Positions 9,146 through 28,672 of a stretch of DNA of 64,000 nt are shown piece by piece; the stretch's first letter is position 1; every line of letters starts with the position of its first letter. Under the pieces are notes generated by a model. The model was not told where the DNA came from and did no database searches. It worked only from the letters and a program-made list of their open reading frames with translations. Location: the NCBI GenBank assembly GCA_021782205.1, contig JAJXVH010000007.1, forward strand, positions 5,514 to 69,513, given 5' to 3'. The stretch is from a bacterium. GTDB lineage: Bacteria > Elusimicrobiota > Elusimicrobia > UBA1565 > UBA9628. The position numbers and the translations under genes are program-made.

Positions 9146-10415
9146 CGTTCCCGCGCGCATCGCCGCCGAACTGCCCGCGCTCGAGCGCATCGACCGCGAG
9201 AGCTTCGACGAGCCCAAGTGCTTCGACATCCTGCTCAACTACAACTGCTCGGCCAAGTGCCTGTTCTGCTCCCAGGACTTCGCGTGGCGCAAGGAGCCCA
9301 ACGACCTGCCCTTCGAGAAGGCCGTCGAGTTCATGTACATGGCCTACAAAAACGGCTACCGCCGCCTGGGATTTACCGGCGGCGAGCCGACGATCCGTCC
9401 GGAGCTGCCCAAGCTCATCGCGCTGGCCAAGAAGATCGGCTACGGCTACGTGCGCATCCAGACCAACGGCATCCGCATCGCCGATTACGCCTACGCGAAG
9501 ACCCTCGCCGACGCGGGCCTGACCTTCGTGAAGTACTCCCTGCACGGCCACAACGCGGAGCTTCACGACAAGCTGGTCGCGGTGCCCGGCGCCTTCGAAA
9601 AGAATCTGCGCTCCATCGAGAATCTTAAAAAATTGAACGTGGGCATCGGCGTCAACATCGTGCTCAACGATTGGAACTACCGCCACCTCGTGGAGTTCTA
9701 CGAGCTGTTCCTGCTCAAGCTCCAGCTCTCGAACTTCGTCATCATCGCTCCGCTCTACGAGGGCAACATGACCCTCAACGACAAGGAGGGCGCCAAGATC
9801 GGCGCGCGCCTGTCGGACATGGCACCCTACATTCGAAAGGCCTACGAGGTCTTCACCAAGATCAACTATCCCAAGCCGCCGCTTCTGCTCCATTTCACGC
9901 CCTGCGTTCTGCCCGGCTACGAGCAGCAGATGCTGGGCTGGTCGGCGTTCAACACCATGGTCGTCAATCCCAAGGGCGAGAAGCGCGACCTGGACATGAC
10001 CGCGCAGTCGCACACGACCAAGACCGAGGCGTGCAAAAAGTGCGTCTACAACGACCGCTGCATCGGCTGGGACTCAAGCTACGCGCGCGTGTTCGGCACC
10101 GATGAGATTGCGCCGCTTCTGGAGATTCCGGAGCGCTACGACGCGCCCACGCGTGGCCGGCCCGCGCACGAAGGCCGGGGCGGCGTGCTGACCGACAACG
10201 AGCAGTGCGTGCTGGAGGTGCTCAAGCGGCGCAATGATTTGACGACCAAGCAGTTCCTGGAGGTCGCCGAGTCCCTGCCCATCTGCAAGGACTGCAAGGA
10301 CGAGAACGCCGTGATGAACGCGGCGGAGACCTTGATCAAGATGGGCGTCGTCGAACGCCGGTTCGTCAAGGGCAAGTATCTCTGGTCGCGCAAGGCGGAG
10401 GTGCCCGCCACATGA
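9138..10415 (+). CDS. radical SAM protein with C-terminal CxxC winged-helix-like extension
   Basis: CSAKCLFC, TGGEPT, QTNG, CKKC-x5-CIG, tail LPICKDCKD; GTG start after GGGAGG. Confidence 0.9.
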   Translation: MADVPARIAAELPALERIDRESFDEPKCFDILLNYNCSAKCLFCSQDFAWRKEPNDLPFEKAVEFMYMAYKNGYRRLGFTGGEPTIRPELPKLIALAKKIGYGYVRIQTNGIRIADYAYAKTLADAGLTFVKYSLHGHNAELHDKLVAVPGAFEKNLRSIENLKKLNVGIGVNIVLNDWNYRHLVEFYELFLLKLQLSNFVIIAPLYEGNMTLNDKEGAKIGARLSDMAPYIRKAYEVFTKINYPKPPLLLHFTPCVLPGYEQQMLGWSAFNTMVVNPKGEKRDLDMTAQSHTTKTEACKKCVYNDRCIGWDSSYARVFGTDEIAPLLEIPERYDAPTRGRPAHEGRGGVLTDNEQCVLEVLKRRNDLTTKQFLEVAESLPICKDCKDENAVMNAAETLIKMGVVERRFVKGKYLWSRKAEVPAT

Positions 10416-11392
10416 GCGCGCGCGCCGAAAGCGGCTGGACGCCGCCGCCGGGCCGGACGCAGAAGTTGGTGCTGTTCACCGGCTTCTCCTGCTCCAGCCA
10501 CTGCCACTTCTGCATCGACCTCAACAAGCGCGACCTGCCCGACAAGTCCTCGCGGCAGATCGTCGAGGAGATGGTCCGCGCCAAGGCCGCGGGTGTGGAG
10601 TATCTGGAGATGATCGGCGGCGAGGCCACGATCCGCGGCGATTTCATCCCACTGGTGCGGACCGCCCGCAAGCTGGGCTTTAAAGACGTCGTCGTGGTGA
10701 CCAACGGCCGCATGTTCGCCGATCCCGCCTTCGCCCGGGCCACGGTCGAGGCCGGAGTCACCGACCTGGTCTTCTCCATCCACGGCCCCGACGCGAAGCT
10801 CCACGATGAGTTGACCTACGTGCCCGGCGCGTTCGACGAGTTGATCCAGGGCGTCGCCCACGTGCGCGCGGCGGGCCTTGCGCGCATCTTCGGCAACTGC
10901 ACCGTGGTCAAGCAGAACATGAAGCGCCTGCCGGAGATCGCGGCGCTGTTCTTGAAGCTGGCCATCCACCACGTCGAGTTCATTTTCGTGGACCCGACCT
11001 ACGGCGGTGCCTATACGAACTTCAACGGATTGGTGCCGCGCATCGCGGACGCCGCGCCGTACATGCGCGCGGCGCTGGACGTGGGCCGCCGCGGCGGCAC
11101 GCGCGACTTCGTGGTGCGCTACGTGCCGCTGTGCCACTTCACCGACTACCTGGACCAGGTCTCCGAGATCCGCGAGGTCGCGACCTTCCGCACCCGCCAC
11201 TGGGCGCCGGACTTCATCAACGATGACGTCGGCGCGGGGCGCGTGGCCGCGGGCCGCGCGAAGACGGAGCGTTGCGCGGGCTGCGCGCTGTACGATCGCT
11301 GTGAAGGAATTTGGCGGGAGTATTTGAATCGCTATGACGATTCTGAACTCATCTGCGTTGGAAAAGCGGCGACGGTCGGTGAGGATCGCTGA
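10412..11392 (+). CDS. radical SAM protein (HxsC-like)
   Basis: CSSHCHFC, GGEAT, TNGR, YVPLC, CAGC-x5-CEG. Confidence 0.9.
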   Translation: MSARAESGWTPPPGRTQKLVLFTGFSCSSHCHFCIDLNKRDLPDKSSRQIVEEMVRAKAAGVEYLEMIGGEATIRGDFIPLVRTARKLGFKDVVVVTNGRMFADPAFARATVEAGVTDLVFSIHGPDAKLHDELTYVPGAFDELIQGVAHVRAAGLARIFGNCTVVKQNMKRLPEIAALFLKLAIHHVEFIFVDPTYGGAYTNFNGLVPRIADAAPYMRAALDVGRRGGTRDFVVRYVPLCHFTDYLDQVSEIREVATFRTRHWAPDFINDDVGAGRVAAGRAKTERCAGCALYDRCEGIWREYLNRYDDSELICVGKAATVGEDR

Positions 11393-11393
11393 C

Positions 11394-12113
11394 ATGCGCC
11401 GCAAAGGCCGACTTGTACTCGCGTCCTATGGCCTCAACGATCGGCAGATGACTATTGAGACTTTGGTCGCCTTGCGCGAGTGCGATTTAATTTACAGCGA
11501 GTCTTTGGATGGAGATTCACGGGCGTCTCTTGAGCGGACGTGTCCTCCCATCATTTCTCTGCGGGATATTGCACCGGACGACGTCACGGATTTGTTGATC
11601 TCGGAGGTGCGCAAAGGGAAGAATGTCGCGTACCTGACTTACGGAGATCCCGGGATTTTAAGTCCTTGCGAACGGTTCGTTTCGCGATGTGAAAAGGAAA
11701 AAATAGAATATCGCCTGTATCCGGCGATTTCTTCCCTCAACGTGCTTCTCTGGCAGGAAAAACTAATCAAGTCCGGCGCGGCCGGCGTCTTGTTGAGTTG
11801 GGTGGGCGCGGAAATCCGCGCGTTCTGCATCGATATTCCGGCGCTTGTTTTTCTTTTTGGAGTGAAGCCGTTCAACAGCGCAAGCGTGGCGAGTCTGATC
11901 GTGAATATTCAGCGCGCTTATCCGTCGGATCATGTCGTGGAGGTGCTCTCGTACGCGGCATCGACCCCGGATAACCCGCGCCGAAGAAAATACGCCGTGA
12001 GCGAGCTGGCGCGAGCATGGCGGGAGGCGGATAATCAGAGCACGCTCTACCTTCCCGCGGTCGGTCGTCGGGTAGCGAAGGCCCGTAAGCGGGTACGAGG
12101 CGGACATGCCTGA
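11394..12113 (+). CDS. SAM-dependent methyltransferase, tetrapyrrole-methylase fold, borosin-like
   Basis: GRLVLASYG, QMTIETL, EVRKGKNVAYLTYGDPG, PAISS, YPSDHVV, STLYLP. Confidence 0.72.
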   Translation: MRRKGRLVLASYGLNDRQMTIETLVALRECDLIYSESLDGDSRASLERTCPPIISLRDIAPDDVTDLLISEVRKGKNVAYLTYGDPGILSPCERFVSRCEKEKIEYRLYPAISSLNVLLWQEKLIKSGAAGVLLSWVGAEIRAFCIDIPALVFLFGVKPFNSASVASLIVNIQRAYPSDHVVEVLSYAASTPDNPRRRKYAVSELARAWREADNQSTLYLPAVGRRVAKARKRVRGGHA

Positions 12114-14992: not shown

Positions 14993-15568
14993 ATGAGAAA
15001 ATCAATAAAAAAATCACGTAAAATATTGAAGAAAAATCCGCGAGCGCGCAAAATCCGACCCGGCGGCGCGCGGGCGTCGGATGTGTGCGTGGTTCTGGAC
15101 GCGCGTCGGGACGGTGTCGATGAGATATATTCGGCCGCCTATCTCATGATCGATAGAGCCTATGTGCTCCTCGAAGGTGACCCCAAAAAATCTATGCGCG
15201 TGACGTTACGTCCCAGAGATGTTCGCACGAAGGCCTCGCTGACGGCGGTGCGAAGCGATTTTATGTCGGAATTGGCCGCTCAACGGGTGCGCTGGTCCAT
15301 AACGCGCAATAATCAGTCGATCCGCGAATACATCGCGGAAAACGCGCTGTCGCTGGCCGCGGAGTTTGGCGCGCGGTCAGAGGTCGCTGAACCGTCTGCG
15401 GCCGCAGAGCAACTCACCCCGGACCAGCGCGCCGAGATCGAAAAGCTGATCGCCGAAGTGGAAACCGAAATCAAGGCGATGAATGAGCAGAAGCCGGCGA
15501 CCGATCCCAAGGCCGCAGTCGCTCCTTGGGAGGCAGGCCGTTTGCCCGGCGGAGAAAACCCCGCGTGA
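14993..15568 (+). CDS. hxsD: His-Xaa-Ser system protein HxsD-like
   Basis: IYSAAYLMIDRAYVLLEGD, FMSEL, IREYI, DPxxxxxPWE; precedes an hxsB-like gene. Confidence 0.75.
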   Translation: MRKSIKKSRKILKKNPRARKIRPGGARASDVCVVLDARRDGVDEIYSAAYLMIDRAYVLLEGDPKKSMRVTLRPRDVRTKASLTAVRSDFMSELAAQRVRWSITRNNQSIREYIAENALSLAAEFGARSEVAEPSAAAEQLTPDQRAEIEKLIAEVETEIKAMNEQKPATDPKAAVAPWEAGRLPGGENPA

Positions 15569-17100
15569 GCCGCTTGAGCGCGTTGCCTGCGAGCCTCCGA
15601 CCCGAAACGAGCGGCCTCGGGCCCTTAAATTTTAGGAATTTCGGCGATTGGGGCCTGCTGACCAATGATTGGGGCCGCTGGCTGATGCTCGACAAGAATG
15701 ATTTTTCGCGAGTCCTGTCGGGCGACGTGAAAGCCGGTGAGCCCCTGCATCAGCAACTCGCGCAGCGGGGCTTCCTGCGTGAGGCCATGAACTTTCCGGA
15801 ATTGGCCGCGTCTTATCAAAAGTTGACGTCATTCCGTCTGATTTCGGGCCCCAGCCTGCATATGATCGTCGTGACCTTGCGCTGCAACCAAAAGTGCCTC
15901 TACTGCCATTCCAGCGTGGTCGATCCCTCCCGGACCGACACGGACATGGACTTGGAGACGGCCAAGCGCACGGTTGACTTTATTTTCGCGACGCCGAATC
16001 CCGCCCTCTGCATCGAATTCCAGGGTGGAGAGCCGCTGTTGAATTGGCCCGTTGTGAAGTTCGTCGTCCAATACGCGAAAGCGAAGGCCAAGGAGCAGAA
16101 CCGACGCCTCCTTCTGGCGCTCGTCAATAATTTCACATTGATGACCGACGACAAGCTTCAATTCTTGATTGATCACGGCGTCTCCATCTGCACATCCCTT
16201 GACGGCCCGGCCGATCTGCACAACAAAAACCGCCCGTTTCTGGGCGGAGGGGAGGCTCAGCCGAAAGTGGTCGGTTGGGTTCGGCGCATCATGGACCTGG
16301 CCAGCACCGACGATTTGCGTAAGCCGTATCTGCCGAGCGCTCTGATGACGACGACGCGCTTCTCCTTGGGACGCGGCAAAGAGATCGTCGACCTGTACCG
16401 GGACCTCGGCATGGAGCAGATTTTTCTTCGTCCGCTGTCTCCGATCGGCTATGCCAAGCGCGTCTGGCATGAAATCGGTTACGAGCCCGAAGACTTTCTG
16501 CGCTTCTATGCGGAGACCCTCGATTACATTCTCGAGCTCAATCGCAAGAACCCGGACGAAATCATGGAGCGCTTTACGCTGGTGTTGTTGACGAAGATCC
16601 TCAAAGGTGAGGATCCCGGCTTCATGGATCTGCGCTGGCCCTCCGGCGCCGTGCTGGGCGCCCTCGCCTATAATTACGACGGGCGCATCTTCGTCAGCGA
16701 CGAGGGCCGGATGGTCGATCATCAGGGCGATCCGATCTTTCAAGTCGGCGACGTCGCGCGTGATTCTTGGCAAGACGTGCTCGACCACCCGACCGCGCGG
16801 GCGTGCGCGGCCGCTTCCACTCTGGAGGCCCAGCCGATGTGCGCCCAGTGCGCCTACAAGCCATGGTGCGGGGTGGAGCCCGTCTTCCATTACGAAATGC
16901 AGAGGTCGATTGCCGGACGTATGCCGGACAGCCCGTGGTGCCGCGTTCACATGGGGGAATTCGACATCGTCATGCAGCGGCTGCGCGATCCGAGCAGCCG
17001 CGCCGTTTTCGACCGATGGCTCGAGCGGGACCTTTGCCACTGGCAAGAAAACGACCCGGTCCTGGTGCCCGGCCAGCCCATTCCGGAGGCTTTGCGATGA
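15565..17100 (+). CDS. hxsB: His-Xaa-Ser system radical SAM maturase HxsB
   Basis: LLTNDWGRW N-terminal RRE-like region, PSLHMIVVTLRCNQKCLYC, IEFQGGEPLLN, TSLDGP, LAYNYDG, SDEGRM, CAQCAYKPWC. Confidence 0.9.
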   Translation: MSRLSALPASLRPETSGLGPLNFRNFGDWGLLTNDWGRWLMLDKNDFSRVLSGDVKAGEPLHQQLAQRGFLREAMNFPELAASYQKLTSFRLISGPSLHMIVVTLRCNQKCLYCHSSVVDPSRTDTDMDLETAKRTVDFIFATPNPALCIEFQGGEPLLNWPVVKFVVQYAKAKAKEQNRRLLLALVNNFTLMTDDKLQFLIDHGVSICTSLDGPADLHNKNRPFLGGGEAQPKVVGWVRRIMDLASTDDLRKPYLPSALMTTTRFSLGRGKEIVDLYRDLGMEQIFLRPLSPIGYAKRVWHEIGYEPEDFLRFYAETLDYILELNRKNPDEIMERFTLVLLTKILKGEDPGFMDLRWPSGAVLGALAYNYDGRIFVSDEGRMVDHQGDPIFQVGDVARDSWQDVLDHPTARACAAASTLEAQPMCAQCAYKPWCGVEPVFHYEMQRSIAGRMPDSPWCRVHMGEFDIVMQRLRDPSSRAVFDRWLERDLCHWQENDPVLVPGQPIPEALR

Positions 17101-17567
17101 TGAAAATTAAAGTGGATATCAAAGAGCGCCGCGCCATCGTGCGCGCGCCGCGACGTCTCTACTCGGAGGATGCCGTTCGGATCGCCGCGCATGTCTTTGA
17201 ATCGCAGGCGGAGATTTATCACGACCAGACCGGAAGCGAGCATGTCCTGACCCTTGTCGCTCGGCGCAAGGATTGGGAGGACCTGCGTTTGGAAGCGCTC
17301 GGCGGCGAGTTTCTTAACGAGTTGCTGAATCAGGAACAACGGATGCGCGTGGCGCGTTTCAACCGGCGCATCTCGGAGCGCATCGTCGCTCAGGCCCTCC
17401 TGGCGGCGCGCGGCGGAGAAAATCCCGCGCCCAGGCAAGAGGACTCTCCGGAACTGCGGGCCGAGGCCGCCCGCCTCATGGCGGCCGCCGCCGATGAGAT
17501 CCGCCGCACCATGCCCGCGCGCATTGCGCCGCAAGGACCGCCCATGCGCGCGCCGGAGCCCGCGTGA
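17097..17567 (+). CDS. HxsD-like protein
   Basis: LYSEDAVRIAAHVF, GEFLNELLNQEQR, RIVAQAL. Confidence 0.7.
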   Translation: MMKIKVDIKERRAIVRAPRRLYSEDAVRIAAHVFESQAEIYHDQTGSEHVLTLVARRKDWEDLRLEALGGEFLNELLNQEQRMRVARFNRRISERIVAQALLAARGGENPAPRQEDSPELRAEAARLMAAAADEIRRTMPARIAPQGPPMRAPEPA

Positions 17568-19021
17568 CGCTCGCCGGTTCCCGCCTGACCTCCATCGCGT
17601 CGCACCTGGAGCGGGAGCCGCGCCGCGTCGCGGGGCATGCCGCGCGGCGCCTTGGGACGCGGGTTCTGGTCACTTCCGATTCCGGGCGCTGGATCACGCT
17701 TTCGCACGGGGAATATGATCGCTATCTGTCCGGCGGCGTGAGCGACGACGAACCCTTGGGCGCCACGCTGGCGGAGCGCGGCTTGCTGCGCGATCGTCTG
17801 GATTTCGCGGCGCTTGGAGAAGCGTTTTCATCCCGGCATCTTCTTCGATGGCCCGGTCCCGGAGTACACACGATCGTGGTCACCCGCCGGTGCAACTTTC
17901 GGTGCGTCTATTGCCACGCGAGCGTCGTTCCCGAAGATGATCGTTCGACGGACATGACTCCGGAAATCGCGAGGGCCGCGGTCGATCTGGCCTTTCAATC
18001 GTCCAATCCGGAAATGACGATCGAATTCCAGGGCGGCGAGCCCTTGCTGAATTGGCCGGTGGTCAAATTCATCATCGATTATGCCCGCCTCAAGAACGTC
18101 GTTGCGGGAAAACGTCTGCATTTTGGTTTGATCTCGAACTTCAGCTTGCTCGACGACGCGAAAATCGACTGGCTTGTCGAGCGCGGAGTCAGCTTCTGTA
18201 CATCCCTGGACGGCCCCGCGGATATTCACGACGCGAATCGGGTGTATCTGGGCGGCAATGGCCATGCCTCGGTCGTCGCCGGCCTCAAGGCGATCCAGGC
18301 TCGACGCGCCGCGGGCGCGAAAATTGATTCGCCCAACGCGATCTGCACGGTCACACGGCTTGCGCTGACGCGGCAAAAAGAGATCATCGATCAAGCGGTG
18401 GAATTGGGCCTTGAGCGGATTCAATTGGGCCCGCTCGACCCGGTCGGTTTTGCCCGCCGATCTTGGGGCCGCGTGGGATACTCGTCTTCGGAATTCGTCG
18501 ATTTCTACGCGCGGGCGCTGGACTATCTGATCGCGCTCAATCAGCGCGGCGTGAAAGCGTATGAAAAAACCGCGCTCGTGCTTTTGATCCGCATCCTGCG
18601 CGGTGAGCATTGGCGCTTTCCAAACGCCGACGGCGCCGCGCGCTTGGCCTATGATTGGGACGGCGGCGTGTACACGTCCGAGGACGGCCGATTGTTGGCC
18701 GCGGACGGTGACGAATTCTTCCGCGTCGGAGAAGCCGGGCGCTCGAATTTGGCGGAGATCCTCGACCATCCGCTGGTAAAGACCTCGCAGTACGCGGCCC
18801 TGCCCTGGGCGCAGCCGATGTGCTCGCAGTGCGCTTACGCGCCTTACTGCACGGTGCAGCCGGTCTTCAACTATGAGACGCAAGGCAGCCCGTGGGGCCG
18901 CATGCCGGTCAACGGCTGGTGTGAAAAAATGATGGGAATTTTCGACGTGCTGTTCGCGCGGCTGGAGGACCCGGCGGCGCGGACCGTGCTCGAGTCGTGG
19001 CTCGAGTATAAAGACCGATAG
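17564..19021 (+). CDS. hxsB: His-Xaa-Ser system radical SAM maturase HxsB (second copy)
   Basis: VHTIVVTRRCNFRCVYC, IEFQGGEPLLNW, TSLDGP, CSQCAYAPYC. Confidence 0.88.
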   Translation: MTLAGSRLTSIASHLEREPRRVAGHAARRLGTRVLVTSDSGRWITLSHGEYDRYLSGGVSDDEPLGATLAERGLLRDRLDFAALGEAFSSRHLLRWPGPGVHTIVVTRRCNFRCVYCHASVVPEDDRSTDMTPEIARAAVDLAFQSSNPEMTIEFQGGEPLLNWPVVKFIIDYARLKNVVAGKRLHFGLISNFSLLDDAKIDWLVERGVSFCTSLDGPADIHDANRVYLGGNGHASVVAGLKAIQARRAAGAKIDSPNAICTVTRLALTRQKEIIDQAVELGLERIQLGPLDPVGFARRSWGRVGYSSSEFVDFYARALDYLIALNQRGVKAYEKTALVLLIRILRGEHWRFPNADGAARLAYDWDGGVYTSEDGRLLAADGDEFFRVGEAGRSNLAEILDHPLVKTSQYAALPWAQPMCSQCAYAPYCTVQPVFNYETQGSPWGRMPVNGWCEKMMGIFDVLFARLEDPAARTVLESWLEYKDR

Positions 19022-19045: not shown

Positions 19046-19411
19046 ATGGCCAAGAAGAACGCGAAGAAGGGCGGAAAGACGAAGGATTCCAGCAAGCTAA
19101 AAAAAGGCAAGTTGCTGTCCCGGGTCAAGAAGGACGCCTCGGTGTTCCTGAGCTCGGAGGAGGGCAAGGTCACCAAGGAAAATGTCGTCAAGACGGCTGC
19201 GGCTCTCGGCATCATCGGCGCGGCCCTGCTGAAGGCCTCGCCCGCGCCCGCGGCCCACGGAAACTATCTGCACAATTCCGGCGGAGTCGGGTCGCATACC
19301 AGCCATGGCTCACACGGATCTCACGGCTCCCATGGTTCCCACGGTTCCCACGGTTCCCACGGTTCTCACGGCTCTCATTGCCGCGGTGGGTGGTGCAACC
19401 CGAGATGCTGA
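19046..19411 (+). CDS. hxsA: His-Xaa-Ser repeat RiPP precursor (HxsA-type)
   Basis: Lys-rich leader, FLSSEEGK, hydrophobic stretch, HNS, HTS+(HGS)8, HCRGGWCNPRC; GGAGG upstream of ATG 19046. Confidence 0.92.
   Translation: MAKKNAKKGGKTKDSSKLKKGKLLSRVKKDASVFLSSEEGKVTKENVVKTAAALGIIGAALLKASPAPAAHGNYLHNSGGVGSHTSHGSHGSHGSHGSHGSHGSHGSHGSHCRGGWCNPRC
19295..19375 (+). repeat. nine 9-bp tandem units encoding His-Xaa-Ser
   Basis: cat acc agc then 8x CAY GGN TCN with synonymous variation. Confidence 0.95.
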
Positions 19412-19448: not shown

Positions 19449-20552
19449 GTGGCTCTGGACCACCTAGCCGTCTATCTGAGCAATAGCTGCAACTTGGCCT
19501 GCAGCTATTGCTATGTCGCGGTCAATCAAGGTCCGGCCGCACGCCTGGATTTTGATGCCGTGCGGCGTGCGGTCGACGAGTTCGTGGCGCGGGTCTCGCC
19601 CGATAAGCGGAAGGTCACTTTTATCGGCGGCGAGCCGCTTCTTGATTGGCCGTTGTTCGTCGAGTCCGCCCGCTACGCGCGCAGGGCGATGGGTCCAAGC
19701 GGGGTGCTGCAGACGTTCACGAACGGGACCTTGCTGACTCCTTCGAAGATTTCTTTTTTTGAAGAGGTCGGCGTTCATTGCACCGTAAGCGTGGACGGCC
19801 GCAAAGAAGACAACGACCTTCATCGTGTTTTCTATAAAACCGTCGGCCGATCCGTGTATGACGACGTGATGGAGCGTCTGCGGCCCTTGGACAAATCCCG
19901 TTTGGGCGTCAGCCTGGTCTTCACGGCGCGCACCGTGGACCGTCTTCTGTCCAACGTGGACGCATTCCATCGCATGGGATTCGGGCGGGTGACGTTCAAT
20001 CCGGAGCTTTATGAGGCATGGCCGGAAGAAAAAATCGAGGCCATGCGGCTTGCGCTAAAAGGCCTTTCGCGCTGGTACCGTGCGTTGCTCGACGCGGGCG
20101 TTCGTCCGCCTCAGTTGCAGATACTCTATGCGGTCTTGGAGGCCGACGAACAGAATGCGGTCGACCCTCTTTGGTGGCGCGACTGCCATAATATGACCCT
20201 GGGGCCGGACGGTCGTTACTATTCGTGCGACAAAGCGCTTTCTCATCCGATCGGAACCGCGGACGGCTTGGTCTCCGGCTCCGCGCAGACCGGCATGGAC
20301 TGGGCGGGCCGCCAAGAGCGGCTCGACGACCCGGCGGCGCTCATCGAGTCCAGCGGAGAGGGTGCCGGCCATGTGTTTTGCCCGATCGGTGTGGTCGAAC
20401 ACGCCCGCCTTGCGGGACGCGACCCGGCACCGGCGTTGAAGAATTTTAGGCGCGTGGCCGACGCTTTTTCCGTCGGGTTGCATGACCTCGTCTCGCGATG
20501 CTCCGGCCATCCCGTCTACGAGGAAATGTATGGACGCGCCCGCGCCTGCTGA
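19449..20552 (+). CDS. radical SAM protein with twitch/SPASM-like cysteines
   Basis: CNLACSYC, GGEPLL, TNG, SVDG, DCH...SCD...FCP. Confidence 0.9.
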   Translation: MALDHLAVYLSNSCNLACSYCYVAVNQGPAARLDFDAVRRAVDEFVARVSPDKRKVTFIGGEPLLDWPLFVESARYARRAMGPSGVLQTFTNGTLLTPSKISFFEEVGVHCTVSVDGRKEDNDLHRVFYKTVGRSVYDDVMERLRPLDKSRLGVSLVFTARTVDRLLSNVDAFHRMGFGRVTFNPELYEAWPEEKIEAMRLALKGLSRWYRALLDAGVRPPQLQILYAVLEADEQNAVDPLWWRDCHNMTLGPDGRYYSCDKALSHPIGTADGLVSGSAQTGMDWAGRQERLDDPAALIESSGEGAGHVFCPIGVVEHARLAGRDPAPALKNFRRVADAFSVGLHDLVSRCSGHPVYEEMYGRARAC

Positions 20553-21687
20553 AATCCACGCCGCCTATGGTCCCGCGGAACTGGCGCGTCTGCGTGCTTT
20601 GGGGTTGGCGACGAATAAGGAAATTCGCCGATTTAAAGTCGCCGTAAATACCGCCTGTCCGTTGCGCTGCGATTACTGCTTCATCGACAAGGATTCCGGT
20701 GAAACGATCTCTTGGGAGCACGTGGCCGGACTTGTGCGCTTCCTGCTGTCTTCACCCGGCCACGTGAAGAAACTTCTGTTGTACGGTGGAGAGCCGTTTC
20801 TGAATTTCGCGCTGGTGCGCGAGATCGCACTCTACGCCCGCGCCGAGGCGCTCAAGGCCGGAAAGGATTTGGATTTGTCGATCTGCACCAGCGCGGCTCT
20901 CCCGTTGCGCACCGAATGGCTGGAATTCCTGCGCGACCAGCGGTTCTTCTTATCAGTCAGCATGGACGGAGACGCCGCGACCCATGACGCTCATAGACAC
21001 GACAAGGGCGGCGTCGGTTCTCATGCGCGCATGATTCCGAATCTGCCGCCGATTTTCGAATCGATCGGTCGCCGCCGCGCGATGGCGATTCAATGCGTGC
21101 ATCCCGGCAATGTCGAGAAAATGCTCGACAACTTCAAAACCCTCGCTGGTTATGGATTCGAGAATATTGAAATTGAAGTCATTCATGGGTTCGGCTGGAA
21201 AGACAAGAAGCATCTTTTTCGCCCAATGATGCAGAGAGTGTTGGACTGGGTGTGGGAGGAGGCCCGGGCGGGGCGGCGACGCTTTGTCGTTTGTTCGCTG
21301 GTGCCGCTGATGCTCAAGGATGGCGTCGTTCGCGAGGATTGGTGCCCGTTCCACTCATCGATGGAAACGTACCCTGACGGCAGCTTTTCATTCTATCCGT
21401 TCGCGTTCGTGGATTGGGATGGACGCAGACGCTCCAAAGTGGGGGACGCCTCCGGTGGAATTCCGCCGCGTTTCCAGGATTGCTCATTCGACCTGGGATC
21501 GGATAAATGTCGGAACTGCACCACCGATTACTATAAGAATCCGTCCGTGAACGAAGGCAACGATCCCTATCGCTGGCGCACCGAGATGGCGCGTGCGTTC
21601 ATGGACAAGGTCGCAATGGTCGCGCGAACCGATCCGACGATGAAGGAATATCTGAAGGAGGCGCTGATTCGGTGCCGCATCAGCTGA
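20530..21687 (+). CDS. radical SAM protein
   Basis: CPLRCDYC, YGGEP, SMDG, WCPF, DCSF...KCRNC; start uncertain (ORF open from 20482). Confidence 0.88.
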   Translation: MDAPAPAEIHAAYGPAELARLRALGLATNKEIRRFKVAVNTACPLRCDYCFIDKDSGETISWEHVAGLVRFLLSSPGHVKKLLLYGGEPFLNFALVREIALYARAEALKAGKDLDLSICTSAALPLRTEWLEFLRDQRFFLSVSMDGDAATHDAHRHDKGGVGSHARMIPNLPPIFESIGRRRAMAIQCVHPGNVEKMLDNFKTLAGYGFENIEIEVIHGFGWKDKKHLFRPMMQRVLDWVWEEARAGRRRFVVCSLVPLMLKDGVVREDWCPFHSSMETYPDGSFSFYPFAFVDWDGRRRSKVGDASGGIPPRFQDCSFDLGSDKCRNCTTDYYKNPSVNEGNDPYRWRTEMARAFMDKVAMVARTDPTMKEYLKEALIRCRIS

Positions 21688-24600
21688 CGTTGCTGGGATC
21701 CTCGCCCAATGCCGTGCTGCGCCGCGGCGCGGTGAAGGCGAACCTGATCCACCACCTGGCGCACACGGGTGGAACGAACGTCCTTCGACGGATCGGGCGC
21801 GCTTACGCGCCGCCGCGGGATTGGATTCCTGCGTCCGGACGTCCGGTTTCTGCTTCGACGGCGAGAGCGTTTGACGCCGCCTTCGGCGTTGCGACCCCGC
21901 GTCTCTCCCGCCGCCATCCCGTCCTCGCCACGCTGGCGCGCGCCGCGGGCCGCGATGAGTTCTGGGCCCATTTCGGCCTTGCCTTCCACTTCTTGCGCGT
22001 CTGGGAGGGAGATGAGCCGTTTCGCGACGCTCTGGCGCACGCCGACGCGGCGCTGCGCTTCGAGCCGGACTGGGCGTGGGGGTATCTCCTACGCGGGGAA
22101 ATAAAGCGCTCGCTGATTGATTACGCGGGCGCGGCCCTCGACCTGCACCGGGCCGCCGCCCTCGACCCGGGTTGGTCCTGGGCCGAAGGATTTCTTTCGC
22201 GGGCGCTTTTCCAGCGCGGCACCGACGCTTCGGGCCTGGAGCCTTTGGACCGAGCGGTGACCCTGGGCCCGCGCGAAGGTTTTTTACGCTGCTGGCGCGC
22301 GGAAGCGTATCGCCGTCTGGGCCGGACGTCGGAGGCTCAGCGTGAATTTAGCGAAGGGTTGAGCCTGGATCCGCTCTATGACCAGGGCTATGGCTGGCGC
22401 GCGCGCCTGCTGGACGCGCAGGGCCGCCATGACGAGGCTGCCGCGGATTTGCGTCGCGGCATCGACTTGTGTCCGCATTTTGAAAAGGCTCATCGGCAAC
22501 TTGTGCGCTCCCTGCGCGGGGCCGGTAAGACGGGCGCGGCCCTGCGCGAGCTTGACCGCGCCGCGACGCTCAATCACCGCAATAACTGGCTGGGTGTCTG
22601 GCGTGTCGAGGGTCATCCGGATGACGCGACGGCCCGCCAAGCGCTGGCTGAGATCGATGCGCATCTGGCGCGCCGTCCCCGCGATGCGCGCGCGCTAGCC
22701 TGGAAGGGCGAAACGCTGGCCCAGATCGGACGGCTGACCGAGGCAATCGACATCCTCGACGCCGCGCTGAATCTCAAGGCGGACGACGCCTGGGCGTTGT
22801 GTTGGCGAGGCGAGGCCCTGTTGGGATTGGGCCGCGTCGCGGAAGCGCGGGCGGACCTGGACCGCGCGATTGTCCGCGACGCCTCCTACGGACGCGCGTG
22901 GGCCTGGCGAGGTCGCGTGCGGCTCCTCTGCGGCGATTTCGAGGGGGCTGAAAATGACCTGACCAGGGCGCTGTCGGTCAAGAGAGTCGAGTACTCCTGG
23001 ATATGCGCCTGGCGCGGAGAAGCAAGGCTCGAACTCGGCCGACTCGAGGACGCGACCCGCGACTTTGACGCCGTCCTCGCGCTTGACCCAGGCCAAGCGC
23101 GCTTCCGACGGCTGCGGGCACGCGCGGCGCGCGGCGAGGCGGCGGGCGCGCAATCCGATCTTGACGCGGCGCGTGTGTCCTCCGATTTCGCTTTCGAGTC
23201 TTCGACGCCCGTACTCTGGGGTCATCTGCCGTGGCGGACGATTCTGGCGGTCGAGGAGCGGCGTCTTGCGGGCGACGCCCGGGGCGGTCTGCGCCGTCTA
23301 AATCCGGTCGTGCGCCGCCATGGCGGAGAGGCCCCCTGGCTCTACATTCTGCGCTACCGTCTGCGGCGCGCGCTGGGCGCGGCCAACGCGCACCGTGACG
23401 TCGATCTCGCTTTCCGCCGTGATCCGAACTCCGGCTGGATCGCAGGCTTGGTGGCGGCTCCGCCATCCGCGGCGCGGCAAGCTCTTCTCTTGCGCGATTC
23501 CTGGAGGGGATTCGCGGACGACGCCTCTTGCGCGCCCCTCCACGCCTATCACGGGCATGATCTTTTCCGGCGAGGCGACGCGACGGGAGGACTGAAAGCG
23601 CTTGAGCGCGCGGTCGGTCTGGAACCGTCGGCGTGGATCCTGGCGTGGCTCGGTGAGGCTCTTCGTTCCGCAGGGCGCCCTGAGGAAGCGCGCGCGGCGT
23701 TGGATCGTGCCCTCGCTCTCGATGCGCGCTATGACAACGCCTGGGCTTGGCGCGCGACGTTGAAGCTTGCCGAAGCGGACGCCGCGGGCGCATTGACGGA
23801 TCTGCGGCGTGCCATTGCGCTGCGGCCTACCGCTCGAGCGCTCCATGAGTTGGCCCGGACTTTGCGCGCCCTAGGTCGAACCGAGGATTCGCTGGACGCG
23901 CTGGCTAGCGCGGCGCGACTCAATGCCGAGCTTGGCTGGTCTGGGCTTCGCGACGAGGCCGCCCCGCAGGCTTTAGAGGAAATCCGGGCGCTACGTGTTC
24001 GCCGCGACGGGCCGCGACTGCGGGAATGGGAGGCCGACGCTCTTCTTCGCCTCGGTCAGCCGGGGCAGGCGCTGGCGATTCTAAAGGGCGCGCGCTCCGC
24101 GTGGGCGCGAACGCGCCGGGCCGAGGCCCTTTTACAGCTGGAAGGTCCATCGTCCCGCGCTCTTGAAGAGGCGCTGGCGGCATCTCGCGGAGACCCGCGT
24201 TGGGCCAAGAGCCGAGCCGTGGCGGCGCAGGCCACTTTGCGCGCGGGCGACACGGCTGCGGCCGCCGTCCATGCCGCGGCGGCCGTCCGGCTCAACCCCT
24301 TTTCCGCGCGGCTGCGCGTTCTGCGCGCCGAGGCGCTGGCCGCGTCCGGCCGACGCCGCGCGGCGAAACGCGAGTTGGAGCGCGCGCGCGCTTTGGCTCC
24401 GGGCTACGCGTTGGCGCGGCAACGACTGGAAGAGCTTCAATTCGGACGACCCATCGACGCGCCGTCGCTTATTCCTGCTTCCGATCCGATCGGCGGCGAG
24501 CCGAAGTCATTGGAATTTTTTGTCAATTATTCCTGCAACGCCAAATGCCCGTTCTGTTTTAATCCCCCGGATGCCTCCGCCGAGCTTGAGCGGGGCCTGC

Positions 24601-25460
24601 CTTTGCGGGAATTAGCCGCGCGCCTCCTGTCCGGCTGGCGCGAAGGTTATCGTGCCGTCAAATTTATCGGCGGTGAAGTCACCGTGCGGGAGGATCTGCC
24701 TCAGATCCTCGCCGCGGCCCGGCAGATCGGCTACCGCTCTATTCAGTTGACGACCAACGGCCTGCGTCTCGCCGACCCGGCTTATGCGCGGCGCTTGGTC
24801 ACGCTCGGCGTTAATCGCGTGCGTTTTTCCGTCCATGGGCATCTTTCGGAACTTCATGACCGGCTGGTGGGCGTTCCGGGGGCGCTCGCGAAAATTGAAC
24901 TGGCGGCCGGCCACTTGCGGCCGCTCGGGGTGTCACTTGGCGTCAACTACGTCTTGAATCGAGTGAACGTTGGAGCATTTCCGGAAACCCTCGACTGGCT
25001 TTACGGTTCCTTCGGGGTCGACGACGTGATTGTCTATTTCTTGCGCTATCAGGGCTTTGGGGCCCTGCTTGAAAATAAGAACTCGCTCAAGCTTTCGTTT
25101 TCGGAGGCGGTCGGGCCCGTGCGGGAAGGCCTTTCCCGTTTGCGCGCGCGCGGGACCTTGCGAATGCCGCAATTGATTCATTTTACGCCCTGCGTGGCCC
25201 CGGAATGGACGAAATTGATGGCCGATTGGACCCGGGACCCTGCCGGCAGCGGTCAAGGCAATACATCCGAGGACCGCGTGACGATGCCCGACGGTACGAC
25301 CGGCTTGATCCATGCGGTGACCAACAGCGGCAAACGGCCCGTGGCCGCCTGCGCGTTCTGCGCGATCCGTGAGCGCTGTCTGGGTGTCGAGGAAAACTAC
25401 GTCTCCGAGTTCGGGGAGAATGAATTTCATCCGCTGCGCCTCGCGGAGGTGGCCGCATGA
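21672..25460 (+). CDS. TPR-repeat / radical SAM fusion protein
   Basis: about 930 aa of Trp-rich TPRs, then CNAKCPFC, GGEVT, TTNG, CAFC-x5-CLG; true start may be GTG 21732. Confidence 0.85.
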   Translation: MPHQLTLLGSSPNAVLRRGAVKANLIHHLAHTGGTNVLRRIGRAYAPPRDWIPASGRPVSASTARAFDAAFGVATPRLSRRHPVLATLARAAGRDEFWAHFGLAFHFLRVWEGDEPFRDALAHADAALRFEPDWAWGYLLRGEIKRSLIDYAGAALDLHRAAALDPGWSWAEGFLSRALFQRGTDASGLEPLDRAVTLGPREGFLRCWRAEAYRRLGRTSEAQREFSEGLSLDPLYDQGYGWRARLLDAQGRHDEAAADLRRGIDLCPHFEKAHRQLVRSLRGAGKTGAALRELDRAATLNHRNNWLGVWRVEGHPDDATARQALAEIDAHLARRPRDARALAWKGETLAQIGRLTEAIDILDAALNLKADDAWALCWRGEALLGLGRVAEARADLDRAIVRDASYGRAWAWRGRVRLLCGDFEGAENDLTRALSVKRVEYSWICAWRGEARLELGRLEDATRDFDAVLALDPGQARFRRLRARAARGEAAGAQSDLDAARVSSDFAFESSTPVLWGHLPWRTILAVEERRLAGDARGGLRRLNPVVRRHGGEAPWLYILRYRLRRALGAANAHRDVDLAFRRDPNSGWIAGLVAAPPSAARQALLLRDSWRGFADDASCAPLHAYHGHDLFRRGDATGGLKALERAVGLEPSAWILAWLGEALRSAGRPEEARAALDRALALDARYDNAWAWRATLKLAEADAAGALTDLRRAIALRPTARALHELARTLRALGRTEDSLDALASAARLNAELGWSGLRDEAAPQALEEIRALRVRRDGPRLREWEADALLRLGQPGQALAILKGARSAWARTRRAEALLQLEGPSSRALEEALAASRGDPRWAKSRAVAAQATLRAGDTAAAAVHAAAAVRLNPFSARLRVLRAEALAASGRRRAAKRELERARALAPGYALARQRLEELQFGRPIDAPSLIPASDPIGGEPKSLEFFVNYSCNAKCPFCFNPPDASAELERGLPLRELAARLLSGWREGYRAVKFIGGEVTVREDLPQILAAARQIGYRSIQLTTNGLRLADPAYARRLVTLGVNRVRFSVHGHLSELHDRLVGVPGALAKIELAAGHLRPLGVSLGVNYVLNRVNVGAFPETLDWLYGSFGVDDVIVYFLRYQGFGALLENKNSLKLSFSEAVGPVREGLSRLRARGTLRMPQLIHFTPCVAPEWTKLMADWTRDPAGSGQGNTSEDRVTMPDGTTGLIHAVTNSGKRPVAACAFCAIRERCLGVEENYVSEFGENEFHPLRLAEVAA

Positions 25461-26422
25461 AGACAGACGACCCCACCCTCGAGTTGTTTCTCAATTATGC
25501 CTGCCAGGCGAAATGCGGATTCTGCTATAACCCGCCTATCGACGATCAGCTCCTGCGCCTCGAGCTTTCCTTTGAACAGGCCGCGGCCGCCCTCTACCAA
25601 GCTTCGCATGGCGGCACGCGTCGCCTGAATCTTCACGGAGGTGAAGTGACTCTCCGTGATGACCTGCCGAAAATTGTACGCCTCGCGCGCAAGCTTGGTT
25701 TCATCGACATCACTTTGGTCACCAACGGCGTGCGTCTTGGCGACGGCCGCTACGCGCGCTCGCTCGCGTCTGCGGGCTTGACCAGCGCGCGCCTCTCCAT
25801 CCATGCGCCGAACGCCCCGGCGCATGACGCGATTGTTCAAGTGCCCGGGGCTTTTGTGCGCGCGCGGCGCGCGATGGCCCACATGGAGAAGCTCGGCGTC
25901 GCGGTGGGAATTAACTTCGTGCTCATTGCGGAGAATGCTTCTCTCTTGCCGGAGTTCCTGAAGATGTTCGTCGTTGACGCTGGAGTCAAGGACGTCATCG
26001 TGTATTTCCCGCATGAACGCGGGATGATGGCGCTAAATGCCGCGCGTCTGTCGATGTCCTATCAGGACACGCATGCGCACCTGCTGGACGCGGCCGCGAT
26101 GCTGACGGCAGCGGGGCGGCGCGACGCGCTAAAGATCGCCAATGTCCCACCCTGCGCCGCTCCGGAACTTCTGGATGTCCTTCTTGATTGGGAGCGCTCT
26201 CATGAAGGTTCTCCCGCCGCGATGCTTCACCCGGAAGGGCATGAGTCCGATCTTTCCGCCATGAAGGACGGACAACGGCGGCCGATCGCCGCATGCCGAT
26301 CTTGCACGCTCTCCGCGCGATGTCGAGGAGTCGAATCCGAGTACCTGCGCCGGCACGGAGACGCCGCTTTACGCCCATTGGACGCCGTCCCGTTCTTGCC
26401 GCCCGTGGGAGCCCGGCGATGA
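25457..26422 (+). CDS. radical SAM protein (HxsC-like)
   Basis: CQAKCGFC, GGEVT, TNG, NVPPC, CRSC-x5-CRG. Confidence 0.9.
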   Translation: MKTDDPTLELFLNYACQAKCGFCYNPPIDDQLLRLELSFEQAAAALYQASHGGTRRLNLHGGEVTLRDDLPKIVRLARKLGFIDITLVTNGVRLGDGRYARSLASAGLTSARLSIHAPNAPAHDAIVQVPGAFVRARRAMAHMEKLGVAVGINFVLIAENASLLPEFLKMFVVDAGVKDVIVYFPHERGMMALNAARLSMSYQDTHAHLLDAAAMLTAAGRRDALKIANVPPCAAPELLDVLLDWERSHEGSPAAMLHPEGHESDLSAMKDGQRRPIAACRSCTLSARCRGVESEYLRRHGDAALRPLDAVPFLPPVGARR

Positions 26423-27432
26423 ACCTGCTGCTCTTTCTCTCCGATCGTTGCAATATGGCCTGCGGCTATTGTTTTCTGTCACTGAATGAGCATCCGACCA
26501 CGATATTGACCGAAGCCAGCGCCGTGAGCGCGGTCAGTGCGCATGCGGCTAGGTTCGGTTTCCGCGCCCGAGTGACCATCCTCGGCGGGGAGCCGCTGCT
26601 CCATCCGGAATTAATCCGGACGATTGTCCGGCGCACGCACCGTTCTGGCGCGAAGTTCACGCTGGTCACCAACGGCACGAAAATGGCGCCGAACGATATC
26701 GAGGGACTTCTCGACCTCGGCATCGAGGTCGTCGTCAGCGTGGATGGCGGCGCGCCGTCGCACGACCTACAGAGGCGATTTTTGGGCGGGGGACACACGC
26801 ATGATGTGATCGCGGCGTCCCTTTCGAGGCTCGACGTCAAGCGATTAAGGGCGAACCTCGTCGTTTCAGAGGCCACTGTCCCCGCTTTTCTCACCAATAT
26901 TGAGGCGCTGCGGGAGTTGGGCTTTCGCCGCGTGTCGTTTCACGCCGACGTCTTGAATTCCTGGAGCGAGGACGGCCTGCGCATTTTGGAGGGCGCCCTG
27001 TCGGGGTTCGTCCGCTACGTTCGCATCGTCGGCAAGTCTCAGAGCGGTTTGAGCTTTGCGCATCTGGATAGCTACCGCCGCTTGCGCAGCGGTCTTCCAG
27101 GGGACGAGGAAATCATTTTAGGCGCCGACGGTCGCTATTACCTCAGCGATGCCTGGCTGTCTTTGCCGTATGGTCGGGGTTTGGATGGGGCCGTCGGCGA
27201 CGCTGTCTCCGGCCCGGACTGGGCGCGGCGTCGCGCCCTGTTGGCGGCGGCAGACGCGGAAGTGGCTCGGGTGTTGGGACCGGAACCATATTACACCTGG
27301 CCCCGTGAAGCATGGCTTCTGGCCCGCATCTCGGGTCGCGATCCGGAGGCGGCGGTCAAGGCCTTTCACCGTGCGGATTCGCTGATCGGTCGGGCTCTTG
27401 GCGGGCTTGTTCGGGAGACGACGCTTGGCTGA
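26419..27432 (+). CDS. radical SAM protein, paralog of 19449-20552
   Basis: CNMACGYC, GGEPLL, TNG, SVDG; ATGA overlap. Confidence 0.87.
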   Translation: MNLLLFLSDRCNMACGYCFLSLNEHPTTILTEASAVSAVSAHAARFGFRARVTILGGEPLLHPELIRTIVRRTHRSGAKFTLVTNGTKMAPNDIEGLLDLGIEVVVSVDGGAPSHDLQRRFLGGGHTHDVIAASLSRLDVKRLRANLVVSEATVPAFLTNIEALRELGFRRVSFHADVLNSWSEDGLRILEGALSGFVRYVRIVGKSQSGLSFAHLDSYRRLRSGLPGDEEIILGADGRYYLSDAWLSLPYGRGLDGAVGDAVSGPDWARRRALLAAADAEVARVLGPEPYYTWPREAWLLARISGRDPEAAVKAFHRADSLIGRALGGLVRETTLG

Positions 27433-28672
27433 GGCTATTCCGTCGGAGCTTGCGACCCTGCCGAATTCCGGCGACTTTGCTTCGGCCTGTTCTTCCGTCG
27501 CGCTCCGTCTTGGACTCCGGGACCCGCGCGCCGATTTTGTTATACGCTCGCGCGATCCGCGACAGGATATGCAGTATGGGGAATCGTTGATTCTTGCTGA
27601 AGACGCGGCCCCCTATCGCCGCGCCAGTCGTATTTTAGCCCGCGCGCGCCGCCTATGGCCGCAATGTCCGGGGGCCTGGCTGGCCGCGGGCGCGACCGAA
27701 ACGATTTTGGCCCGCTTTCGCGCGGCGCTTCCTTTTCTGTCGAGAGCTTCGAGACTCGCTCCAGATTCAGAATGGGTCGCGGCTTGGCGCGGCGTCGCCT
27801 TCGCCCTGGACGCTCGCCGTCGGCGGGACGCCCGATTAGGTGTCGCCCTGACCGAACTCAACAAGGTCGTGACCCCCGGCACCGCAGTCGAATTCGCGGC
27901 TCCGTGGCGCGCGGAGTTGCTTCATGACCTTGACCGACATGACCTTGCGCTCGAAGACTTGGCGCGCATTACGCCGGCCAGCGCGTCGTGGCTTTGGTCC
28001 CGCGTCGAGCGCGGCGAAATTCTGTGCGAATCCGGGCGGGCCGACGAAGCCCTCCGGGAGTTCGATCGGCTGGTCGCGGAGTATCCGAAGGCGTCCTGGG
28101 CTTGGGCGCTGAGGGGACGAACCTTGGCCACGACGGGGCATGCCGCCAGGGGCCTGCGGGACCTGAACCGCGCGGTAGTGCTTTCTCCGAAATCCGCTGC
28201 GGCCCGCGCCTGGCGCTCGGAGGCGCTCCGACGCGTGGGGAGCTACCGCGCCGCGCTGAATGATTTGAACCGCGCGACGCGGCTCGATCCACATTTTACG
28301 TTGGCATGGATATGGCGCGGCCGCCTTCAATTGGCGCTGCGCCGACCCGAGCGCGCGTTATATGATCTTGACCGTGCCGTCCGACTGGACCGCCGTTATC
28401 GTCTTGGCCTGCTGTGGCGCGGGGAGGCCCTCTTCAAGCTGGGTCGAACGCGTGAGGCCGCGCGTGACTTTCGATTCGCGGCGCCGATGGATCCCAAGCG
28501 CGCCTGGACCTTTCCCGTGCACGAAGGGGTTGCGCCGGACTCGGCCGGGCGCGAAACGGCGTTTTGGGCGGATATGCAAAAGCGTGTAAAAAAGTCTCCG
28601 CACGATGCCTGGGCTCGTCGCATTCTGCGGGAGGCATTGCGGCGCGAATATTCATCAAGGAATCCCTCATGA
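27398..28672 (+). CDS. tetratricopeptide repeat protein
   Basis: repeated DLxRAxxLxP / AWxWRG units; start approximate. Confidence 0.8.
   Translation: MAGLFGRRRLAEAIPSELATLPNSGDFASACSSVALRLGLRDPRADFVIRSRDPRQDMQYGESLILAEDAAPYRRASRILARARRLWPQCPGAWLAAGATETILARFRAALPFLSRASRLAPDSEWVAAWRGVAFALDARRRRDARLGVALTELNKVVTPGTAVEFAAPWRAELLHDLDRHDLALEDLARITPASASWLWSRVERGEILCESGRADEALREFDRLVAEYPKASWAWALRGRTLATTGHAARGLRDLNRAVVLSPKSAAARAWRSEALRRVGSYRAALNDLNRATRLDPHFTLAWIWRGRLQLALRRPERALYDLDRAVRLDRRYRLGLLWRGEALFKLGRTREAARDFRFAAPMDPKRAWTFPVHEGVAPDSAGRETAFWADMQKRVKKSPHDAWARRILREALRREYSSRNPS

Follow-up and report, generated by a model that had tools for sequence, protein, structure and literature searches.

The window considered here is a 64,000-nucleotide (nt) stretch of bacterial DNA from an Elusimicrobiota genome (contig JAJXVH010000007.1 of assembly GCA_021782205.1, positions 5,514 to 69,513), and two of its genes are the main subject: that at 19046-19411, which encodes a short precursor with a His-Xaa-Ser repeat core, and that at 52597-53988, whose product resembles prepilin peptidases (coordinates of these and other features are collected in Table 1). 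From sequence and modelling it is rather probable that a dedicated A24-type peptidase removes the leader of the HxsA4 precursor at S-E-E-G↓K, the arrow marking the proposed scissile bond. The 19046-19411 product is an HxsA4-type His-Xaa-Ser repeat precursor: it scores 72.4 bits against the NCBIfam HxsA4 model NF038313 (cut-off 55), residues 24-114 aligning to positions 2-91 of the 93 in the model, and GGAGG stands 8 nt upstream of its ATG. A K-rich N-terminus is followed in order by F34-E45, the hydrophobic V47-L62, A-S-P-A-P-A-A, H71, the repeats (ten S-H-x units, nine of them S-H-G) and a Cys/Trp tail. An earlier, sequence-only reading of the window had picked out F-L-S-S-E-E-G↓K-V-T-K-E, between a basic N-terminus and a hydrophobic stretch, as a prepilin-type cleavage site, and its coordinates (19145-19180) and residues are exact in the translation; G40 is then position -1 and E45 position +5.

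In a lone sequence a glycine and a glutamate so spaced are at chance level, and the site is lifted beyond chance because the family conserves G(-1), though not E(+5). F34, S37, E38 and E39 are invariant in 27 aligned sequences, with G40 and K41 each at 90% or more. Among 46 distinct bacterial and DPANN archaeal leaders (one was mis-anchored by the search pattern, its true -1 residue also being G), position -1 is G in 43 and A in three, -2 is E in 43 and R in three (all three archaeal copies), -3 is E in 45, -4 is S in 43 and -7 is F in 44; beyond the proposed bond, +1 is K in 39, +4 is K or R in 32, +6 is D or N in 37 and +9 is K or R in 38. The conservation of G(-1) that had been anticipated among HxsA homologs is accordingly seen, with the S-E-E ahead of it nearly invariant. 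A small residue (G or A) at -1 behind a basic leader, as in class III signal peptides, is present in all 46. As in Flp/Tad and type IV prepilins, acidic residues precede the small -1 residue and a hydrophobic helix comes after, and F-L-S-S-E-E-G resembles the Flp leader pattern, F-x-x-[DE]-E-x-G. His-Xaa-Ser precursors of DPANN archaea (loci L083, L108, L112 and L115) have E-E-R-G↓S or G-E-[RK]-G↓G in place of S-E-E-G↓K; a basic residue at -2 is a trait of archaeal class III signal peptides, to which these leaders are similar. Covariation between the -2 residue and a basic loop of the peptidase was sought, with no clean pattern. The leader motif was found on no core lacking His repeats in the 80 loci described below, where, among 19 pattern matches, one was false, being inside another protein (L098), and one had an HGN-repeat core (L086).

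The product of 52597-53988, translated from a GTG that overlaps the upstream stop codon (GTGA), can be described from sequence and model as a divergent A24-like peptidase that keeps both aspartates, has the first Gly of GxGD replaced and carries an insertion of about 280 residues. The putative catalytic residues are D27 (GAT, 52675-52677), in W-S-D-F-R-F-K-K-I-K, and D100 (GAC, 52894-52896), in W-P-A-G-D-A-K-L-F. An exhaustive search gave 384 representatives of the family at E<=0.001, of which 60, 19-46% identical to the query, were aligned: D27, W91, D100, K102, L130, N132, G410 and F439 are invariant, and the family motifs are D-x4-[KR]-[IV]-x-N-[KR], W-[PA]-A-G-D-A-K-L-F and a C-terminal T-x-P-F-A-x-W (a pattern check of 18 loci found the loop and G-D-x-K motifs in 14). 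Placement of the aspartates in a D-x4-[KR]-[IV]-x-N loop and a G-D-x-K-L motif, a C-terminal P-F-[AG], a polytopic membrane fold nearest that of FlaK and a predicted cut behind a Gly where a hydrophobic helix meets the cytoplasm are all shared with A24 peptidases (FlaK, 3S0X; PilD; TadV). Unlike them, the family has P-A-G-D or A-A-G-D for G-x-G-D, the insertion lies between core helices, there is no methyltransferase domain, and the likely substrate is a radical S-adenosylmethionine (SAM)-modified repeat protein, not a pilin or flagellin.

Matches to Pfam A24 (PF01478) at E<=0.01 are found in 28 of the 60 relatives, the best at 1.4e-7, and a paralogue in the window's own genome is above the Pfam cut-off (27.8 against 26.5 bits). 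The AlphaFold (AF2) model of the peptidase is confident (predicted local distance difference test, pLDDT, 90.6; predicted template modelling score, pTM, 0.86), and in a search independent of Foldseek FlaK chain 3s0x_B ranks first of 48,161 chains, with 172 of 186 residues superposed at a root-mean-square deviation of 3.6 and a Z of 10.2, a value that helical bundles can reach through arrangement alone; the next match has Z 8.3 over 75 residues. In the ESM Atlas, feature similarity (0.92-0.93) and structural similarity both lead to A24 clusters as neighbours; several are of the archaeal type with C-terminal extensions. When the family was aligned by hhalign to 29 PilD sequences from the class over the N-terminal 150 columns, D27 and D100 fell on the PilD Asp motifs, weakly (E 0.07); at full length the C-terminal P-F motif alone aligned, and against the genome's single PilD just 11 columns did. 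Residues from about 150 to 430 make up the insertion, which is helical, family-specific and without a clear structural match. The close relatives in public records (18 beyond the window protein; eight named) are all 'hypothetical protein' with no precomputed Pfam domain. Given the invariance of D27 and D100, the FlaK-like fold and the A24 neighbours, the original assignment of the last + strand gene to the A24 peptidases, with both Asp motifs, stands.

The two genes are also associated across genomes. Of 401 Elusimicrobiota genomes, 96 have an HxsA4 match, which in 78 exceeds the cut-off, and 87 match the peptidase profile; both genes are present in 81, HxsA4 only in 15 (12 of them weak, E>1e-7), the peptidase only in six and neither in 299. 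Where HxsA4 is strong the peptidase is present in 80 of 83 genomes. Of the 80 genomes with listed places, 55 have precursor and peptidase on one contig, and in the other 25, fragmented assemblies, they are on separate contigs; on a shared contig the genes lie 10.2 kb apart at the median and 389 bp at the closest, with 49 within 30 kb and six farther, up to 105 kb. In two genomes (G344:C120 and G374:C148) the genes are adjacent, 80-100 bp apart. The window's genome has a second locus, on another contig, with HxsD (54.2 bits), HxsB (515.6 bits), HxsA4 (84.1 bits), HxsC-like genes and an A24-like gene that sits between radical SAM genes with its ends overlapping theirs. Elsewhere that genome also has an ordinary pilin system (L001, 1381-2905, - strand), in which a type IV pilin whose N-terminus reads G↓F-T-L-I-E-L has a canonical PilD-type prepilin peptidase for its neighbour, and so the cluster peptidases are additional, dedicated copies. 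A scan not confined to the phylum, with one genome per species, kept 80 loci: outside the Elusimicrobiota the peptidase family is present in candidate phyla radiation (CPR) bacteria, Myxococcales, Omnitrophota, Spirochaetes and DPANN archaea, and its pairing with the precursor recurs in loci of Spirochaetes, CPR bacteria, Pseudomonadota and DPANN archaea. The co-occurrence of leader and A24 gene that the sequence-only reading had led one to look for is therefore seen across the phylum and recurs beyond it, and the A24-type peptidase is a regular, near-obligate and previously unannotated part of HxsA4 systems.

Modelling of the complex is in keeping with a direct contact. The input was the peptidase (60-sequence alignment) and leader residues 20-78 (26-row alignment), both alignments author-made, with three controls; the peptidase-leader runs scored 0.72, 0.70 and 0.68, the best control 0.00. 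On this measure 58 of 80 solved complexes, and two of 110 mismatched pairs, attain the mark. The runs share at least 89% of contacts, with partner pLDDT of at least 64. The peptidase side of the interface comprises D27, 31-35, 94-101 (including D100), 127-145, 434-440 and parts of the insertion; on the leader side it runs from 33 to 62, residues 33-52 spanning the cleavage motif and 54-62 lying on peptidase helix 127-145. The best-defined pairs are D100-V42 (1.6 A expected error), W96-V42, F439-V42 and residue 436 with T43, so that the residues at the Asp site are those immediately past the proposed G40↓K41 bond. Binding of the leader at the peptidase Asp site has the support of this model.

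Several observations weigh against the proposed cleavage, those that bear on particular alternatives being taken up with them. On the leader, E(+5), offered earlier as a diagnostic residue, is present in just 11 of the 46, and it fails in that capacity; Y(+6) is absent, the leader is about 40 residues long, and positions +1 to +9 are charged in every copy, unlike any pilin, so that the class III expectation of a hydrophobic helix from +1 is disappointed (+1, +4 and +9 are mostly basic). In pilins E(+5) serves assembly, not cleavage, and its absence is for that reason no argument against cutting. The caveat attached at the outset, that the residues after the site are too charged for a true pilin, was well placed, and the accompanying idea of a 'pilin-like' product has to be given up: no Pfam family, Flp or pilin included, matched three leaders at E<=10 (though HMMER filters may hide very weak matches), and neither an assembly ATPase, platform genes nor any other pilus assembly genes were present among 36 scanned window genes. 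Judged from its sequence, the HxsA4 precursor is like a class III substrate in its working, yet not a pilin.

On the peptidase, the window protein itself reaches just 16.8 bits against PF01478 (E 0.0099), below the cut-off of 26.5; no NCBIfam model matched it; the first Gly of GxGD is replaced by Pro or Ala family-wide ([PA]-A-G-D); Foldseek with the whole model against the PDB gave nothing at E<=0.001; and a profile search of PDB sequences found no A24 chain, just two irrelevant matches at E about 1. The controls for the complex were unrelated natural proteins and not matched transmembrane helices. The 401 genomes, being related, are not independent, and counts from them overstate the statistical weight. 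Precursor and peptidase genes are separated in the window by 33 kb, a stretch that includes one gene on the opposite strand, the halogenase-like 35863-37836. The claim that the operon ends in an A24 peptidase is right in that 52597-53988 is the final + strand gene ahead of - strand genes; since 35863-37836 interrupts the + strand array, however, 'operon' is itself an inference (a terminator-like site was sought 3′ of the peptidase gene and none was found). In the wider family a His-Xaa-Ser or HGN repeat open reading frame (ORF) lies within 10 kb of the peptidase in 24 of the 80 loci only, whereas an HxsB- or HxsC-like gene does so in 61 (a further eight matched just the query with a radical SAM domain fused to tetratricopeptide repeats (TPR), and 11 none). 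His-rich small ORFs sought in 31 precursor-less loci were none of them credible; in these loci the precursor is farther off or different.

The alternative that survives best, itself unlikely, is that the precursor has an ordinary Sec signal peptide with a long n-region, signal peptidase I cutting at A-P-A↓A and freeing the core to the periplasm; within this scheme the A24-like protein would have a secondary part, such as clearing the leftover membrane leader in the way of a signal peptide peptidase, or would be uninvolved in HxsA4 processing. The hydrophobic stretch is indeed short, 13-16 residues, and Sec h-region-like: between K49 and K63 there are only 13 hydrophobic residues, and a Pro/Ala-rich stretch follows, though an n-region of about 46 residues is atypical for a Sec signal peptide. 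L54, G55 and G58 are invariant in this segment in the 27 aligned sequences. A rule that is crude and readily satisfied by Ala-rich segments gives 22 of 27 relatives a small-x-small site ending 0-4 residues before the invariant H71, and the other five lack one; the relatives, moreover, hardly differ in the S-E-E-G-K region but have segments of varied sequence and length from G58 to H71. Canonical HxsA bears a signal peptide and acts in the periplasm, yet its cleavage is reported as more than signal-peptide removal (both from the parts of PMC13128918 drawn on here). An ordinary signal peptide would also leave unexplained both the dedicated A24-type gene in nearly every strong HxsA4 genome and the docking of the leader in the peptidase Asp site in the model. 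Signal peptidase I may nevertheless be the true processing enzyme or a second one.

Less probable again is that F-L-S-S-E-E-G-K serves solely as a recognition sequence for the radical SAM maturases, through a leader-binding domain of HxsB or through HxsD, with the substrate of the A24-like protein elsewhere, e.g. among pilin-like proteins. That the conserved motif could serve maturase recognition counts against cleavage as its purpose, and HxsB has about 100 residues ahead of its radical SAM core, an N-terminal extension of a kind common in leader-binding maturases; the two roles can, however, coexist. The excess of HxsB/HxsC-like genes over repeat precursors near the peptidase is in the same direction, as are seven of the 80 loci (six CPR, one Omnitrophica; the pattern matched nine, L043 and L099 falsely) in which pilin-like genes of the classical sort, their N-termini being of G↓F-T-L-I-E type, stand 1-5 kb downstream of the peptidase. 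Such pilins fit a prepilin-type activity of the peptidase family, which in these seven loci may process pilins, or the pilins may be the radical SAM targets. By the same pattern no pilin-like N-terminus was found in the window, the second locus or four further Elusimicrobiota loci, in two genomes precursor and peptidase are neighbours, and the complex prediction was specific to the leader relative to its controls. Both this alternative and the Sec signal peptide are weakened because neither explains a near-obligate dedicated peptidase. That the A24-like protein is instead a non-proteolytic membrane scaffold or export component acting on the modified repeat protein through its insertion, which lacks a structural match and is contacted by the modelled leader (peptidase 223, 285-296, 345-367 and 405-412), is very improbable, invariance of both Asp, K102 and N132 in relatives of such low identity being hard to account for without catalysis.

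In the seven pilin-neighbour loci (L066, L068, L074, L078, L105 and L113 in CPR; L095 in Omnitrophica) the A24-like gene comes after HxsC-like radical SAM genes and before three or four pilin-like genes, and none of the seven has a His-Xaa-Ser precursor within 10 kb.

If the dedicated A24-type peptidase does remove the HxsA4 leader, the following course can be envisaged. The cluster's radical SAM enzymes (two HxsD/HxsB pairs, HxsC-like and SPASM proteins) would presumably modify the repeat core in the cytoplasm, after which the hydrophobic segment would insert N-in/C-out, leaving the processing site S-E-E-(G/A)↓K about nine residues to its cytoplasmic side. The peptidase, with D27 and D100 as catalytic residues, would bind the junction of leader and helix and cut at or next to G40↓K41, removing some 40 residues. 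The product would be an outward-facing, membrane-anchored His-rich repeat protein or, should signal peptidase I also cut ahead of H71, a soluble periplasmic one. Catalysis, the exact bond, the order of steps, topology and final location are the inferred parts of this mechanism.

Comparison with known systems puts the proposal in context. In the parts of the HXS report drawn on here (Nat Commun 2026, PMC13128918), canonical HxsABCD of Pseudomonadota is an antiphage system with HxsA as periplasmic effector; HxsA needs a non-canonical N-terminal cleavage that depends on HxsB, HxsC and HxsD and for which those parts name no protease; and 99.7% of the reported systems are in Pseudomonadota. Set beside that portion of the report, HxsA4 systems are alike in having a His-Xaa-Ser repeat protein encoded next to HxsD, HxsB and HxsC-type radical SAM genes, and in an N-terminal part, for export or as leader, whose cleavage in maturation is reported there and predicted here. 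They differ in that HxsA4 consists of pure S-H-G repeats (9 to >40 units) with no peptidoglycan-binding domain and an S-E-E-G↓K leader, in that their clusters add many radical SAM, TPR, halogenase-like and PhyH-like genes together with the A24-type peptidase, and in being found in other phyla; the comparison is of genes and not of defence role. A second parallel is with ribosomally synthesised and post-translationally modified peptides, for which the C39 domain of ATP-binding cassette (ABC) exporters, a soluble Cys protease fused to the exporter, is a dedicated leader peptidase. As there, a cluster-encoded protease is matched to a site at the leader end with a small residue at -1; unlike there, the HxsA4-cluster protease is a predicted intramembrane aspartyl protease. 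No ABC exporter, C39 domain or peptidase besides A24 was found among the 36 window genes (the Pfam scan left out 56-64 kb), in agreement with what the sequence-only reading had said of the locus.

On in silico support only, the HxsA4 system reads as a new form of HXS with a probable dedicated prepilin-type leader peptidase. Literature searches yielded no paper joining 'prepilin peptidase', 'radical SAM' and 'leader peptide', and none on HxsA4, HxsC4, HisXaaSer or NF038313. If correct, the proposal would add radical-SAM-modified repeat proteins to the substrates of A24/GxGD proteases and would give a candidate function to at least 384 representative clusters labelled hypothetical in public records; with a candidate protease encoded in cis, HxsA4 systems also make HxsA-type N-terminal cleavage directly testable. 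A broader proposition, put forward tentatively and with less than even confidence, is that HxsA4 systems are a widespread radical-SAM protein-maturation pathway (Elusimicrobiota, CPR, Myxococcota, DPANN) in which an intramembrane GxGD-type aspartyl protease has been recruited as leader peptidase, and that nitrogenase-paralogue loci are HxsA4 maturation clusters. On that view a prepilin peptidase would for the first time be seen in such a role on anything but pilins and flagellins, and HxsA4 would offer a candidate model of how HXS antiphage effectors are processed at the N-terminus. In groundwater Elusimicrobia a novel nitrogenase paralogue (Group VI) amid radical SAM genes was read as a tetrapyrrole reduction pathway in the main text of 10.1101/765248, where 'peptide' and 'peptidase' have no occurrence. 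Like those Group VI loci as that main text describes them, the second HxsA4 locus of the window's genome (L007) has two nitrogenase component-1-type genes (7551-9632 and 9493-10923; PF00148, 59.9 and 120.1 bits) amid radical SAM genes, and it is through these that HxsA4 clusters are linked to the nitrogenase-paralogue loci of groundwater Elusimicrobia. Were the link to hold, such loci would make a membrane-anchored, metal- or DNA-binding His-repeat protein and not tetrapyrroles, a new reading for large radical SAM and nitrogenase-like loci of uncultivated phyla.

Table 1. Features of the window discussed in the text, with positions counted from its first nucleotide
Feature	Position	Strand	Basis
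HxsD-like small protein, copy 1	15125..15358	+	TIGR03976 six-frame, 48.6 bits (cut-off 50); G000:C114:20638-20871
HxsB radical SAM/SPASM maturase, copy 1	15526..17100	+	TIGR03978, 469.2 bits (cut-off 370)
HxsD-like small protein, copy 2, within ORF 16767-17567	17154..17402	+	TIGR03976, 44.6 bits (below 50)
HxsB radical SAM/SPASM maturase, copy 2	17564..19021	+	TIGR03978, 395 bits (cut-off 370)
HxsA4 precursor, 121 residues	19046..19411	+	NF038313 match and translation
Conserved leader motif F34-K41, proposed scissile bond G40↓K41	19145..19168	+	Alignments, complex model
Short hydrophobic segment V47-L62, membrane anchor or signal-peptide h-region	19184..19231	+	Sequence, alignment, model
A-S-P-A-P-A-A, candidate signal peptidase I site just ahead of invariant H71	19235..19255	+	Crude rule
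His-Xaa-Ser repeat core (S-H-G units)	19292..19378	+	Translation and alignment
Cys/Trp C-terminal tail C-R-G-G-W-C-N-P-R-C	19379..19408	+	Alignment
Five more radical SAM genes	19449..27432	+	Pfam Radical_SAM above cut-off in all five
Divergent A24-type (FlaK-like) putative intramembrane aspartyl peptidase, 463 residues	52597..53988	+	Pfam A24, family alignment, FlaK match

Ahead of the lone precursor gene an HxsD-HxsB pair is tandemly duplicated (15125-19021), and behind it are the five further radical SAM genes (19449-20552; 20482-21687; 21672-25460, with TPR; 25457-26422; 26293-27432). The third and fourth also match HxsC and HxsC4, far under the cut-offs: the best scores are 79-84 bits against 267.9 for HxsC (TIGR03977) and 83-110 against 500 for HxsC4 (NF038332), which makes such genes HxsC-like only. 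For the first, second and fifth genes there are sub-threshold matches to SPASM peptide-maturase models. In total the window has at least 11 Pfam radical SAM genes, about ten TPR proteins and one cysteine desulfurase-like gene. The large TPR-repeat proteins are encoded in 27398-33109 and 38447-52600, and TPR is fused to the radical SAM domain in 21672-25460 and to a halogenase-like domain in 46587-49118. Two PhyH-type dioxygenase-like genes and two for halogenase- or monooxygenase-like proteins dependent on flavin adenine dinucleotide (34314-37836, 46587-49118) point to further oxidative tailoring; their best NCBIfam names are the CmlS, QhpG and LodB maturases, all far below cut-off. Genes like those for tetrapyrrole (corrin/porphyrin) methylases flank the cluster at 11334-12113 and, on the - strand, at 53894-54736, on the basis of a weak CobM-like match and of PF00590 at 59.9 bits.

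The precursor's tail, C-R-G-G-W-C-[NC]-P-R-C, is common to 13 of 27 aligned relatives, other phyla having shorter G-G-W-C tails. Across phyla a few tail types recur (C-R-G-G-W-C-x-P-R-C, G-G-W-C, G-Q-W or G-S-W, G-S-Y and G-S-G-T), at L052, L069, L077, L086, L097 and L106 besides window 19379-19408, which suggests that the C-terminal tail is another element to be recognised or modified. Even close relatives (the window and L008-L036) differ greatly in how many S-H-G units they have, with precursors of about 100 to 208 residues. Several assemblies break within the S-H-G repeat, so that the precursor is easily overlooked in fragmented genomes. In an unclassified bacterium (L103, 12789-14130) three His-Xaa-Ser precursor genes stand in tandem, with an identical leader motif.

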